Shown in pieces: positions 1,629 through 33,669 of a stretch of 64,000 nt of DNA (its first letter is position 1; every line of letters starts with the position of its first letter). Position numbers and translations under genes: made by a program. The stretch lies in assembly GCF_058153355.1 (NCBI RefSeq), contig NZ_CM177019.1. One strand, written 5' to 3'. The notes beneath the pieces were generated by a model. That model worked only from the letters and a program-made list of their open reading frames with translations. It did not search any database and was not told where the DNA came from.

Positions 1629-1955
1629 TTATTTGTTATTACTGCGAATTTCCTGCCAGACTTTATCACAATCGGCTTTCACCGCCTGATCATTTCCGGT
1701 TTGCGTTGCACGCAGACACTGCTGATAATCCAGTACGCGTACACTTTCCTGCTCGGCAAACTGCTGATGTTGTTTCTCTTTCTTCAGCACGTTTAACACG
1801 CTCTGACAGGCTTCAATTTTTTCCGGCGAACCTTGCGCGGTGTTGATACAGGCGCTGTAAGCTTCTTTCAGATGGCTGTCTTCCTGTGGCGCGGTGGATT
1901 GTGCACAAGCCACCAGCCCCGATGCCATCATGGCGATGAGAATCAGTTTTTTCAT
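1629..1955 (-). CDS. chiQ: Lipoprotein ChiQ/YbfN (108 aa), chiPQ operon
   Basis: MKKLILIAMMASGLVAC... lipobox-type signal peptide; directly downstream of chiP on the same strand. Confidence 0.85.
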   Translation of the reverse strand: MKKLILIAMMASGLVACAQSTAPQEDSHLKEAYSACINTAQGSPEKIEACQSVLNVLKKEKQHQQFAEQESVRVLDYQQCLRATQTGNDQAVKADCDKVWQEIRSNNK

Positions 1956-2004
1956 TGCAAATTCCTCAAACGTGCGGCAGGCACAAAACCTGCCGCGTCG
2001 GGCA

Positions 2005-3411
2005 TCAGAAGATGGTGAATGGTGCGATTACCATAAATTTCACGTCACGCTCATCCTGGAAGATGTTGCCGTAACCACCGCCCCAGCTTGGGATGTCGGA
2101 GTGGTTGTCGTATTCGGTAAAGTGCAGTTTGAACATCGTGCCTTTGGCGCGACCGTCCTGAATGGTGTAGACCGCATCCAGGCTGTACGCAGACTCTTCA
2201 ATAGTCCGGTTCTTGTCGTAGTATGCATCCGGATTGCTCTGCCAGGTAGCGGGTTTAGCATCCCATGCGTAAACGTAGGAAGCGCCGATGGCGAAGCCTG
2301 GAAGATTCCAGTTTTTCAGGTCATACATCGCACCGAAGAAGACCGCTTTTTCGCCGTTGGCGTTGAAGTCAGAACGGTTATCCCACCAGATATCCAGGCG
2401 ACCGTTCGAGGAAGCATAGGTTGGAGTCATACGTTGCAGGAAGTATCCCTGCTGACCGTCGGCTTTAACCCAGGTGCCTTCCAGACGCAAATCCACTACG
2501 TCAGCCGCCCGGTAACCAAAGGTCAACGCTTGCAGCCAGGCAGTGCCGTCGTAAAGGTCGTTGACGCTGCGATCGTCAACTTTATCGCGCGTACCGTAGA
2601 ACTGGTAGCTGGTGGTTAACGGGCTACCGGCGATATCAAATTTATAGCTGGCTTTGGCAAAATACTGATCAATATACCCTTCCGCCTGACCAAACGCCGC
2701 TTCCAGTACGAAGTTATTTTTGAAGTCGTACTTCGCCCCAAGGGAGTGTAGATAATCAACTTTGGTGGTTTTATCGTTCTGATAAAACTCATCCATTTCC
2801 AGATGCCACGGCGCTTTATATTCGTTGGTCCACATGTAGGAGAAACTCAACGCACCAGCATCGCCGTAATCAAAATTCGCCCCCGCTTCCGCCCCCTGAT
2901 AAGTACCCGGCATAAAGCTCCAGTGCGGCGCTAACAGCGTCTGACCGGTTGGCTGAATATAACCTGCCCGCGCCCACACCGGACCGTATTTAAATTTGGC
3001 CGCTGCTTTATACAGGCTTATACCGCTTTTATCGCCGGACCAGTCTTCGTCATAGGCTTTATTGCTTTTTGAAAACGCGATTTCGTTCGGGTGAGAACTG
3101 TCGCCGTTTTCCGCCATTTCAATCGCCGTAAACGCCGCAATATCAAGGCCGAACATATCAGCAGCATAACCAGACTGAAAATCGAGGTTGGCGTTCCAGG
3201 TGGAATGAGAAAGGTTGGTTTTGTATTTGTCGCCGTCGGTAACGTCTTTACGGTCGCGTTCACGCTGCCAGTAATAGATACCGCCGGTTAAGGTTGAATC
3301 GTCGATGAATCCTTCGGCGCGAGCCTCCGGCATTGCCATAAAGCCCGACATTGCTGTAACACCGGCGATAGCCAGCGCCAGCGTACTACGTTTGCCACTA
3401 AACGTACGCAT
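2005..3411 (-). CDS. chiP: Chitoporin ChiP/YbfM (468 aa), OprD-family outer-membrane porin
   Basis: 468-aa ORF with signal peptide (...AMPEARAEG) and C-terminal beta-barrel signature ending ...IAPFTIF. Confidence 0.93.
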
Positions 3412-3858: not shown

Positions 3859-5523
3859 TTACTCGCCTACTTTCGCCCAGGTATCACGCAGCCCAACGGT
3901 GCGGTTAAATACCGGTTTTTCCGCCGTAGAATGGCGGCTGTCGAGGCAGAAATAACCTTCACGCTCAAACTGGAATGCTTTGCCCGCTACCGCGTCTTTC
4001 AGCGACGGTTCAGCAAAGCCCTGTTTGATCACCAGCGATTCCGGGTTAATCACCGACAGGAAATCATCCGCAGCACCTGGGTTCGGCACGCTGAACAGAC
4101 GATCATACAGACGAATTTCTACCGGCAACGCATGTGCCGCGCTCACCCAGTGAATAACACCTTTTACTTTACGACCATCTGCCGGATCTTTGCTTAAGGT
4201 GTCAGCATCATAAGTACAGAAGATAGTGGTGATATTGCCTTCGGCATCTTTCTCCACGCGCTCTGCCTTAATAACGTAAGCATTACGCAGACGCACTTCT
4301 TTACCCAGCACCAGACGCTTGTACTGCTTGTTAGCTTCTTCGCGGAAATCAGCGCGATCGATCCAAATCTCACCGCTGAATGGCACCTGACGGCTGCCCA
4401 TTTCCGGTTTGTTCGGATGGTTCGGCATGGTGACCATTTCGCCTTCGCCCTGATAGTTTTCGATAACCAGTTTCACCGGATCGATAACCGCCATTGCGCG
4501 CGGGGCGTTTTCGTTGAGATCTTCACGAATGCAGGATTCCAGCGACGCCATCTCAATGGTGTTGTCCTGCTTGGTCACGCCAATGCGTTTGCAGAACTCA
4601 CGAATAGAAGCCGCCGTGTAACCACGACGACGCAGACCGGAAATAGTCGGCATACGCGGATCATCCCAGCCTTCAACGTGCTTGTCGGTCACCAGCAGGT
4701 TCAGCTTACGCTTGGACATCACGGTGTATTCCAGATTCAGGCGCGAGAATTCGTACTGGCGCGGGTGAACAGGAATGGTGATGTTGTCCAGTACCCAGTC
4801 GTACAGACGACGGTTGTCCTGGAACTCAAGCGTACACAGAGAGTGCGTAATACCTTCCAGCGCATCGCTGATGCAGTGTGTGAAGTCGTACATCGGGTAG
4901 ATGCACCACTTGTTGCCAGTCTGGTGGTGTTCAGCAAATTTAATGCGGTACAGCACCGGATCGCGCATTACGATAAATGGCGACGCCATGTCGATTTTCG
5001 CACGCAGGCAGGCTTTACCTTCTTCAAAACCGCCGGTACGCATTTTTTCGAACAGCGCCAGGTTCTCTTCAACGCTACGGTCGCGGTACGGGCTGTTTTT
5101 ACCCGGCTGAGTCAGGGTGCCGCGGTATTCGCGGATCTGTTCCGGTGTCAGTTCATCAACGTACGCCAGGCCTTTATTGATCAGTTCGATCGCATAGGCG
5201 TGGAGCTGATCAAAATAATCGGAGGAGTAACGGACGTTACCAGACCAGTGAAAACCTAACCACTCAACGTCGTTTTTGATCGACTCAACATACTCGATAT
5301 CTTCTTTTACCGGGTTAGTGTCGTCGAAACGCAGGTTGCACTGGCCTTTATAGTCCTGGGCGATCCCGAAGTTCAGGCAGATAGATTTCGCATGCCCAAT
5401 ATGCAGATAGCCATTCGGCTCCGGCGGGAAACGGGTGTGTACTGTGGTGTGCTTACCACTGGCCAGATCTTCATCGATGATCTGACGAATAAAGTTAGTC
5501 GGGCGGGCTTCTGCCTCACTCAT
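3859..5523 (-). CDS. glnS: Glutaminyl-tRNA synthetase (554 aa)
   Basis: [24 protein letters not shown]...; class I HIGH motif ([14 protein letters not shown]) and VMSKR (KMSKS-type) motif. Confidence 0.97.
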
Positions 5524-30435: not shown

Positions 30436-32106
30436 ATGGATAATGCAGAACTCGCCATTGGTATCTATCTCGGTACTACCAATAGTTTAATTGCCGTCTG
30501 GAAAGACGGTGCCGCGCAATTAATTCCAAATAAGTTCGGTGAATATTTAACACCATCCATAATTAGCATGGATGAAAATAATCATATTTTAGTCGGAAAA
30601 CCGGCTGTATCACGGCGCACTTCGCATCCGGATAAAACCGCCGCATTATTTAAACGCTCAATGGGCAGTAATACCAACTGGCGGTTAGGCAGCGACACAT
30701 TTAACGCACCAGAACTGTCCTCTTTGGTCTTACGTTCATTAAAAGAAGATGCCGAAGAATTTCTGCAACGTTCTATTAAAAATGTGGTGATCTCCGTTCC
30801 GGCTTATTTCAGCGATGAACAACGCAAGCATACCCGTTTAGCAGCGGAGTTAGCCGGGTTAAATGCGGTACGCTTAATTAATGAACCCACAGCAGCTGCA
30901 ATGGCGTATGGCCTGCATACCCAACAAAATACCCGTTCGCTGGTGTTTGATCTCGGTGGCGGCACGTTTGACGTTACGGTGCTTGAGTACGCCACGCCGG
31001 TGATTGAAGTTCACGCCTCCGCTGGCGACAACTTTCTTGGCGGCGAAGATTTTACTCATATGCTGGTGGATGAAGTTTTAAAACGCGCCGCAGTGGCTAA
31101 AAACATGCTCAACGAAAGTGAGCTGGCAGCCCTGTACACCAGCGTGGAAGCGGCAAAATGCAGCAATCAATTACCGCTACAAATTAGCTGGCAGTATCAG
31201 GAAGAAACGCGTGAGTGCGAATTTTACGAGAACGAACTGGAAGATTTGTGGTTGCCGCTGCTCAATCGCTTGCGAGTGCCGATTGAACAGGCGTTGCGCG
31301 ATGCGCGTCTGAAACCGAGTCAAATCGACAGTCTGGTGCTGGTTGGCGGCGCGTCACAAATGCCGCTAGTGCAACGAATCGCCGTGCGTCTGTTTGGCAA
31401 ATTGCCATATCAAAGTTACGACCCGAGCACCATTGTCGCGCTGGGCGCAGCGATCCAGGCCGCCTGCCGCTTACGCAGCGAAGACATTGAAGAAGTGATC
31501 CTCACCGATATTTGCCCCTACTCCTTAGGTGTTGAAGTTAACCGCCAGGGCGTTTCCGGCATTTTCTCACCGATTATTGAACGAAACACCACTGTACCGG
31601 TGTCGCGTGTAGAAACTTACTCGACCATGCACCCGGAACAGGATTCAATTACGGTTAACGTCTATCAGGGAGAAAACCACAAAGTTAAAAATAACATTCT
31701 GGTGGAATCCTTCGATGTGCCGTTGAAGAAAACCGGGGCTTATCAGTCGATTGATATTCGCTTTAGTTATGATATCAACGGGTTGCTTGAAGTTGACGTG
31801 CTTCTGGAAGACGGCAGCGTTAAGTCCAGAGTCATTAATCACAGTCCTGTAACATTGAGCGCACAGCAGATTGAAGAGAGTCGGACGCGGTTATCCGCAT
31901 TGAAAATTTATCCACGCGATATGCTCATCAACCGCACCTTTAAGGCCAAACTGGAAGAGTTGTGGGCGCGGGCGCTGGGTGACGAGCGAGAAGAGATCGG
32001 CCGGGTGATCACCGATTTTGATGCGGCGTTGCAGCCAAACGATATGGCCCGCGTCGATGAAGTTCGGCGACGGGCGAGCGATTATTTGGCTATTGAGATC
32101 CCTTAA
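30436..32106 (+). CDS. hscC: Hsp70-family chaperone HscC/Hsc62 (556 aa)
   Basis: Hsp70 signatures IGIYLGTTNS, DLGGGTFD, LVGGASQMP; correct length. Confidence 0.95.
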   Translation: MDNAELAIGIYLGTTNSLIAVWKDGAAQLIPNKFGEYLTPSIISMDENNHILVGKPAVSRRTSHPDKTAALFKRSMGSNTNWRLGSDTFNAPELSSLVLRSLKEDAEEFLQRSIKNVVISVPAYFSDEQRKHTRLAAELAGLNAVRLINEPTAAAMAYGLHTQQNTRSLVFDLGGGTFDVTVLEYATPVIEVHASAGDNFLGGEDFTHMLVDEVLKRAAVAKNMLNESELAALYTSVEAAKCSNQLPLQISWQYQEETRECEFYENELEDLWLPLLNRLRVPIEQALRDARLKPSQIDSLVLVGGASQMPLVQRIAVRLFGKLPYQSYDPSTIVALGAAIQAACRLRSEDIEEVILTDICPYSLGVEVNRQGVSGIFSPIIERNTTVPVSRVETYSTMHPEQDSITVNVYQGENHKVKNNILVESFDVPLKKTGAYQSIDIRFSYDINGLLEVDVLLEDGSVKSRVINHSPVTLSAQQIEESRTRLSALKIYPRDMLINRTFKAKLEELWARALGDEREEIGRVITDFDAALQPNDMARVDEVRRRASDYLAIEIP

Positions 32107-32114
32107 ACACGGCT

Positions 32115-32212
32115 GCCGGATGCGGCATAAACGCCTTATCCTGCCTACTCGTAGGTCGGATAAGATGCGTTAGCATCGCATCCGACGTTGAAGGATAAGA
32201 TGCGTTAGCCTC
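32115..32212. repeat. Cluster of REP elements (BIME) between hscC and djlC
   Basis: GCCGGATGCGGCATAAACGCCTTATCCTGCCTAC and GTAGGTCGGATAAGATGCGTTAGCATCGCATCCGAC. Confidence 0.55.
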
Positions 32213-32216
32213 ACAT

Positions 32217-33669
32217 CTAACTGAACAACATCGCGATTTTACCGAGCGCGTAACCTATCACCAGAACCGTTAAGCTGATTTTGATAATACTGGCAATGCT
32301 CTGTGGTTTTTCACTCTCATTATTCTTCTCTTCGTGTTCTTCAGGTGCTGGCTCGTCGATATCTTCTTCCACCGGCTCGAGCTTCACTTTCGTCAACAGC
32401 ATGTGAGTAATAATGGCTTCTAACGGATGTGCTTCTCCTCGTTCCAGTCGCGCATTCAGGCGGGCCAGCATCTCTTGTTTCGGGAACGCTTCCAGCACAA
32501 CCTGTTCCGCTACCCGATACAAATCCAGTAACGGTGAATCTTGTTCTGTCTCGCTACCGACTCTCGATTTCCACCATGCCCATGCTTTGCGCTTGAAGAA
32601 TAACGACTCAATAAACGATTGACCTAACGGCGATAATTTTCCGCTATGTAAAATTTCCGCCCATAACAGCCGCGTCCGGGCGCTCTCACCAGGAACATAT
32701 TTCAACGGTTGACCTTGAGCATCTATCATGCTTCGCGCTTCGATAACCATCACTAATAACGCGAAATAATCCGGGCAATGACGCTTGCTCCACTGCAACA
32801 ACAAATTATCAGCTTGTGTAGATGGGTAACTCTCCCGGTATGCGCAGAGATCGGCAAGCAGGCTTTCCCCCTCGCCACAGTACAACCGTTGCGCACACTG
32901 GTAATAACGGGCATCTTCGCTTTCTGGTTCTTCCGTTTGCCACTGTTGCGCTACAGAAATGAGTTCCGCCATACCTGTTTGCACCGAGCTATACCAGCGC
33001 AACAATTTGCGATGCAACTTCGCATCATCGGGAATGAACCACGGACCTTCCATCGCCAAAAACGCAGTGACATAGTCAGGGTGATAACGGCAGCAGCGTT
33101 CCAATGCGAAGTAATACTCAACAGTCTGGTTCTGCAACGCGACGGGATATTCCAGAAGGCTTAGAAAATCGAAACAATCCCCGGCCTGAATGGCCTCAAG
33201 AAAAGCCTCCCGTTCTTCCTCGTCCATGCCTTCACTTTCATTAAACGAATGCCAGTTCAAACGCTCTGCCAGCAAAGAAGCACAATTTAATGAAAGATAT
33301 CGCGCTTCTGTAGCGATTGCACACAGCGGCCAGCGTAATTGATCGACATCCTCCATGTTCCATGGTATTTAATTGCTGAATAAATTTCTGCCAGGCGGAG
33401 GGCTGAAAACGATCGCTTTCCGAAGCCAGTAAGGTTCTGAACGCTTTCAGTGCTTCGTGCTCTTCTGCAAGATTTTTCTCGTCATCAGCATTTTTTTCGT
33501 CCGGATTGACAGCCAGTCGCAGCGCCTCTTCATAGGCCTGGCGTAATGCTTTAAACCCCTGCGGATCGGTTTCGGGATGACACAACGGTAAGCGAGCAAG
33601 ATAAGCCTGGCGGATAATGTCTATTTGCGTCGTGCTTTCAATTTCGAGGATTTGCCAACATGTTTTCAT
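32217..33669 (-). pseudogene. djlC: djlC (J-domain co-chaperone of HscC), split by a frameshift into 142-aa and 379-aa overlapping ORFs
   Basis: ORF 33241..33669 ([15 protein letters not shown]...[10 protein letters not shown] then out of frame) and ORF 32217..33356 ([15 protein letters not shown]...) are collinear with intact paralog DjlB (...[24 protein letters not shown]...). Confidence 0.65.

Follow-up and report, generated by a model that had tools for sequence, protein, structure and literature searches.

Whether a bacterial gene that appears as two overlapping reading frames has been lost, or has only been misread, is the question raised by djlC in the 64,000-nucleotide stretch of DNA analysed here (hereafter the window; contig NZ_CM177019.1 of assembly GCF_058153355.1). 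A sequence-only reading of the window had noticed the two frames and had left two explanations standing: the strain has lost one of the two J-protein partners of the Hsp70 protein HscC, or a base was miscalled within a short repeat. DjlC is a tail-anchored inner-membrane protein and the only partner that has been shown experimentally to stimulate the HscC ATPase, whereas the second partner, DjlB, is assumed from homology and gene position (PMC8215388); thus, the earlier count of two partners holds by experiment for DjlC and by assumption for DjlB. Deletion of hscC, or joint deletion of djlB and djlC, results in cadmium sensitivity, and HscC, DjlB and DjlC all lie under proteomic detection in exponential growth (PMC8215388). 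The evidence set out below strongly favours the first explanation, and we regard djlC in this genome as very probably a frameshift pseudogene created by a genuine and evolutionarily recent one-base insertion.

Organization of the djlC locus

The gene order of the window is that of Escherichia coli K-12 and of strain 24A16CRGN010, with djlC placed between ybeU and the convergent hscC. The features of the locus are as follows.

32217 to 33669, minus strand: the whole djlC pseudogene, 1453 nt as against 1452, supported by DNA identity and the synteny ybeU-djlC-hscC
33241 to 33669, minus strand: open reading frame of the N-terminal fragment, 142 aa, the same as GenBank EGO8351998.1
32217 to 33356, minus strand: open reading frame of the C-terminal fragment, 379 aa, DjlC residues 105-483, the same as GenBank EGO8351997.1
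33363, minus strand: the lesion, an extra A (T on the plus strand) between ACC (Thr102) and TGG (Trp103), placed by alignments
33352 to 33364, minus strand: direct repeat CATGGA-A-CATGGA with a period of 7, read directly from the sequence, a candidate template for the insertion
33360 to 33365, no strand assigned: palindrome CCATGG, made by the insertion in place of the ancestral CCTGG
30436 to 32106, plus strand: hscC, the Hsp70 partner, intact, 556 aa
35038 to 36465, minus strand: djlB, encoding the paralogous J-domain protein, intact, 475 aa
33666 to 34373, minus strand: ybeU, the upstream gene, encoding a DUF1266 protein; its stop overlaps the djlC start

Both frames that the sequence-only reading had proposed as halves of djlC were thus recovered. 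The native start of djlC overlaps the ybeU stop (ATGA), and from this start the N-terminal fragment runs through 102 native residues, comprising the J domain and a linker, into 40 out-of-frame residues. The C-terminal fragment has no J domain and holds the hydrophobic tail anchor (residues 464-482; maximum Kyte-Doolittle value 1.99 in a 19-residue window).

The identity of the gene is well defined at the DNA level. The djlC DNA of the window matches annotated djlC with 90-95% identity and at least 80% coverage in 4,371 complete genomes, and a count of 4,376 complete genomes was obtained for 91-95% identity combined with conserved synteny; the nearest annotated DjlC, WP_474025307.1, shares 95.7% identity with the repaired protein. 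The K-12 protein (DjlC, YbeV or Hsc56), a class C J-domain co-chaperone of HscC, is encoded at the orthologous locus with the same neighbours and 91.3% DNA identity; it has the 483-aa length of the repaired product, the probable N-terminal J domain with an HPE motif and the C-terminal hydrophobic anchor, and it differs in that the window allele bears one extra base after codon 102, which breaks the frame. By BLASTP, the N-terminal fragment is 66% identical to DjlB residues 1-101 and the C-terminal fragment 44% identical to DjlB residues 105-475. The HPE motif occupies DjlC residues 31-33, within the J-domain loop, and DjlB likewise has HPE instead of the canonical HPD. A scan of NCBIfam with the repaired DjlC, both fragments and DjlB matched no family, and a Pfam-A scan of DjlC gave a weak, sub-threshold DnaJ match (residues 4-47, i-E 0.04); therefore, the family assignment rests on orthology and synteny. 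In the literature, the J region of DjlC is treated as a J domain (PMC8215388). Because the J domain and the anchor are not in one frame, the djlC of the window is a pseudogene of the DjlC family and most likely not a functional member of it.

A single inserted base is the only defect

The references for the alignment were djlC of K-12, the nearest allele among complete genomes (NZ_CM148325.1) and djlB from the window itself. All of them read AAT ACC TGG AAC ATG GAG (N-T-W-N-M-E), whereas the window has AAT ACC A TGG AAC ATG GAG, a +1 insertion relative to every reference. The extra A is flanked by C and T and belongs to no homopolymer, so its placement at 33363 is unambiguous; this lies inside the interval 33351-33369 to which the break had been assigned. 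The alignment with K-12 djlC that had been proposed as a way of defining the indel also bears out the length given for the K-12 protein, as that gene has 1452 nt and encodes 483 aa.

Deletion of the extra A in silico yields a 1452-nt open reading frame of 483 aa with no internal stop and no other defect, and the insertion is therefore the sole lesion in djlC. The locus thus shows what defines a frameshift pseudogene: compared with intact, constrained orthologs it has a single indel, and both halves can otherwise be aligned. Intact djlC alleles have a dN/dS of 0.10-0.14, and this value, together with a single lesion in an otherwise clean frame, indicates that the gene is normally constrained and that the break is recent.

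The insertion is very probably genuine

The +A allele was sought with an 81-nt probe centred on the insertion among complete E. coli genomes carrying djlC. The extra A was found in none of the 4,372 matched genomes, all of which matched at 98.8% identity or less, the best of them differing by the one-base gap alone. The same insertion is present in GCA_015332025.1 (contig AAXEGZ010000015.1, an 87-kb draft), where the allele is already in GenBank as two coding sequences named 'hypothetical protein' and 'J domain-containing protein'. Contigs with EGO8351998.1 number two by one count and four by another. The same split products occur in the Logan assembly of SRR8656992, which possibly derives from the reads of GCA_015332025.1 and would then test the assembler only. 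Across the 3.1 kb and 6.4 kb compared with GCA_015332025.1 and SRR8656992, the window is identical except for one SNP, at 32035; the window is therefore a sister genome, and at least two closely related sequences carry the insertion. A further occurrence was found in the unrelated run SRR26453408, which encodes another protein of 142 aa ending in that same out-of-frame tail, owing to the identical +A at the identical position.

These observations bear on the base-calling error that the sequence-only reading had kept as its second branch, in which the true genome would read ACCTGG and djlC would be intact. Short-read draft assemblies do occasionally contain false indels, the sequence in GenBank is a draft contig of 87 kb, and the Logan assembly may come from the reads behind that record. 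However, the site is neither a homopolymer nor a simple repeat, two different assemblers are concordant, the window, which differs by one SNP, adds a third sequence that has the insertion, and the unrelated run carries +A too. Moreover, the absence of the allele from the 4,372 complete genomes and its rarity among thousands of drafts argue against a systematic error at this motif. An artefact of sequencing or assembly is thus improbable, and a real mutation is strongly favoured.

The insertion is polarized by the 4,372 E. coli genomes and by the paralog djlB. A scan of GTDB species representatives for the pattern ACC(N)TGG returned only a 403-bp Caballeronia contig, which is without the extra A, and gave no outgroup state. 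That contig (NZ_AEJF01000292.1, from Caballeronia mineralivorans PML1(12)) matches E. coli djlC exactly over 40 nt and is probably E. coli contamination of that assembly. The repaired 483-aa protein has no exact match in the protein collection searched, so that the immediate intact ancestor was not seen there.

The SNP at 32035 falls in hscC codon 534, where TCA (Ser) is replaced by CCA (Pro); it is non-synonymous and private to the window, the codon being Ser in GCA_015332025.1, in SRR8656992 and in five other E. coli alleles. The exact HscC protein of the window is absent from a collection of 15 billion proteins. This Ser534Pro replacement could reflect chance or a relaxed constraint on HscC.

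Probable consequences for the DjlC protein

Two overlapping frames might also be read as an expressed arrangement, either by a programmed +1 ribosomal frameshift or transcriptional slippage that restores a full-length, functional DjlC, or by separate translation of two useful products. For recoding, it can be noted that the frames overlap, that a +1 shift anywhere from codon 102 on would give a near-native protein and that a GGAGG motif lies nearby. Yet a reference djlC with this same sequence and an annotated programmed frameshift, which the sequence-only reading had named as evidence against a lesion, was found in none of the 4,372 complete genomes, and this lack of conservation speaks against any conserved or programmed event. 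At the junction, no slippery codon precedes a stop or hungry codon, and the zero frame continues for 40 sense codons; the sole GGAGG is situated downstream of the point at which a shift would have to occur, is present in intact alleles too, and in prfB the corresponding element is upstream; and there is no homopolymer run on which RNA polymerase could slip. Compared with a prfB-type +1 frameshift, the djlC site thus lacks ortholog conservation, a slippery codon with a stop or rare codon, and an upstream Shine-Dalgarno-like element. As both conservation and recoding signals are absent, we reject programmed frameshifting, to which we attach a negligible probability.

If djlC is instead read as a broken gene, its native, ybeU-coupled start would yield a 142-aa product consisting of the J domain, the linker and 40 nonsense residues, and this product would have neither the C-terminal region nor the tail anchor by which DjlC sits in the inner membrane. 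The 379-codon fragment would begin at an internal ATG (33356), for which the Shine-Dalgarno pairing is -3.3 kcal/mol compared with -6.8 kcal/mol at the native start. The frame of this fragment is open for only 4 codons upstream of the ATG (TAA at 33371-33369), and translational coupling is unavailable to it because the upstream frame ends 115 nt downstream of the ATG. With no J domain and a weak ribosome-binding site, the C-terminal fragment is probably made poorly or not at all. Since the frameshift parts the J domain from the anchor and the internal start is weak, the strain has most likely lost functional, membrane-anchored DjlC, as far as can be judged from sequence.

A functional split gene, in which both fragments accumulate and act apart or together, or in which the J fragment alone stimulates HscC, must nevertheless be considered. 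The 142-aa frame preserves the entire J domain (residues 1 to about 70) along with the native ybeU-coupled start, the 379-aa frame has an ATG as its first codon and still encodes the tail anchor, and isolated J domains can stimulate Hsp70 ATPase. Against this stand the poor Shine-Dalgarno sequence and missing coupling of the internal ATG, the restriction of the arrangement to one clone and one other run with no sign of selection for a split, and a 40-residue nonsense tail that is likely to be destabilizing. We therefore consider a working split gene unlikely, to about the same degree as an assembly error. The J-domain fragment could still keep some HscC-stimulating activity, and the C-terminal fragment could be translated at a low level. 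On the preferred reading of djlC as a pseudogene, HscC itself is kept intact and its paralogous J protein DjlB plausibly covers the loss of DjlC.

Recurrence and possible origin of the insertion

The djlC allele of SRR26453408 is close to that of K-12, with 97.5% identity, and 125 of 1452 nt (8.6%) distinguish it from the window allele; without its extra A, it too has an intact 483-aa frame. The two alleles are identical over only 104 nt around the site, a stretch that is nearly invariant in all alleles. Therefore, the +A either arose twice independently or came to be shared by recombination over a very short tract (up to 104 nt).

The sequence around the site offers a candidate explanation for recurrence. 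Before the insertion, the region would have been a quasi-repeat, C-TGGA / CATGGA, with a 7-nt period, and the insertion makes the two copies identical. The direct repeat that the sequence-only reading had put forward as a slippage site is indeed present (CATGGA at 33364-33359 and at 33357-33352), but simple slippage on it does not account for the lesion, as it would change a 7-nt unit and not one base. Two of the six repeat bases match only through the insertion, and of all the one-base insertions that djlC could undergo, only 1.4% would yield such a short-range 6-nt repeat. A repeat-finding program listed only a palindrome and two unrelated 6-mers; the period-7 CATGGA repeat was identified in the sequence itself. 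Six-base direct repeats at similar spacing occur at about 1.6 per kb in the window, so that the repeat alone is unremarkable.

The most likely origin, reconstructed after the fact, would be a replication misalignment templated by the adjacent near-identical pentamer or hexamer. On the plus strand, a nascent end in TTCCA would slip back onto the earlier TCCA, copy TG and then realign with its terminal G paired, and the outcome would be the conversion of C-TGGA into CATGGA, identical to the copy at a distance of 7 nt. Templated 'correction' of a quasi-repeat may thus describe the insertion better than direct-repeat slippage. Frameshifts templated by quasi-repeats or misalignment are known from E. 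coli and phage T4 (Streisinger/Ripley/Kunkel-type models). The djlC insertion resembles them in that a one-base addition perfects an imperfect short repeat and in that +A recurs at one position on two backgrounds; it differs in that the homology is only 4-5 nt, the mechanism is a candidate here, and a site for Dcm methylation and very-short-patch (VSP) repair provides an alternative. CCWGG is the Dcm methylation site, and the insertion destroys the Dcm site CCTGG and creates the NcoI-type palindrome CCATGG. A link between the insertion and very-short-patch repair at the Dcm site is conceivable; we know of no reported link between Dcm or VSP repair and +1 insertions of this type.

The recurrence hints at a small mutational hotspot formed by the quasi-repeat at the CCTGG Dcm site. 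The much broader proposition that CC-TGGA/ACATGGA is a sequence-directed +1 hotspot, acting through quasi-repeat templating or error-prone VSP repair and repeatedly, perhaps reversibly, silencing djlC in natural E. coli, has in our estimation a slim chance of being correct. Slimmer still is the chance of a reversible contingency switch, in which the hotspot would turn djlC off and on at a raised frequency. Such a switch would fit the identical +A on two djlC alleles 8.6% apart, the perfecting of a quasi-repeat by an insertion of a kind that only 1.4% of the possible ones would match, and the Dcm sequence of the ancestral site. However, only two lineages are involved among many thousands of genomes, the recombination tract mentioned above could account for the sharing, and reversion would need a precise 1-nt deletion without an obvious driver. 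Simple-sequence tracts, the hallmark of contingency loci, are also lacking: the inserted A lies in no homopolymer or tandem tract, and the only repeat is the 6-nt one in two copies. The identical insertion on two divergent alleles at a quasi-repeat and Dcm site is the sole mildly unusual aspect of this locus, and it would make the djlC site well suited as a natural test of templated frameshift mutagenesis.

Divergence of the window allele

The djlC of the window is 91-92% identical to most E. coli alleles and at best 95.1% identical among complete genomes, with a dS of about 0.34 relative to K-12. Compared with its best match, it is 99-100% identical over the first 700 nt and then 82-90% identical in blocks, and its last ~250 nt are only 80-87% identical to five comparators; the divergence is strongest at about 32217-32470 and 32770-32870. 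The allele is a mosaic, apparently shaped by past recombination among deeply diverged alleles. The flanking 20 kb share 97-97.6% identity with E. coli, and djlB shares 99.7% with that of SMS-3-5. Given these values for the flanks and djlB, another Escherichia species was rejected as the source of the window.

The convergent spacer between djlC and hscC (32107-32216) measures 110 nt, compared with 59 nt in K-12. CTAACGCATCTTATCC, a sequence similar to a REP/BIME element, occurs twice in its extra ~51 nt.

Loss of djlC in other E. coli

Lesions in djlC are not confined to this lineage, and at least four independent ones were observed. In AP027822, djlC is a nonsense allele (CAG to TAG), and in SRR12667821 and eight other contigs another nonsense change (CGA to TGA) is found. 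E. coli B, BL21 and C strains carry a -1G frameshift in a djlB/djlC hybrid that PGAP marks as 'frameshifted', and this segment is present in 89 complete genomes. The pseudogene of the B/BL21/REL606 and C strains resembles the one described here in having a 1-nt frameshift in the N-terminal part, the same 379-aa frame beginning MEDVDQLRW and an intact hscC, and its GenBank entry is named 'Hsc56 co-chaperone of HscC' (379 aa). It differs in its own, independent lesion (the -1G falls in a G run within the J domain) and in its first ~110 nt, which are djlB-like, with the gene directly after ybeR; the B/BL21/C lesion is found in 89 complete genomes and the +A allele of the window in none. With ybeR directly upstream and a djlB-like 5' end, the ybeR-djlB and ybeU-djlC units have seemingly recombined, with deletion of djlB-ybeT-ybeU. 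The widely used laboratory strains of the B/BL21/C type thus appear to be without any intact J protein for HscC. The hybrid was seen at NZ_CP014268.2 (E. coli B C2566), positions 1690-3140, and at further B/BL21/C-type loci.

Each of djlC, hscC and djlB is detectable in about 4,380-4,410 of 5,426 complete genomes, which means that about 19% of complete genomes appear to be without the whole djlC/hscC/djlB module. In E. coli, the HscC/DjlB/DjlC module can be dispensed with and has decayed repeatedly despite purifying selection on intact alleles, and the locus described here is an ordinary recent pseudogenisation of a dispensable accessory chaperone gene. It has little importance beyond annotation, where a single frameshifted djlC pseudogene would be a better description than the two coding sequences now deposited.

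In the B/BL21/C-type strains, ybeQ is also a pseudogene, with an internal stop.
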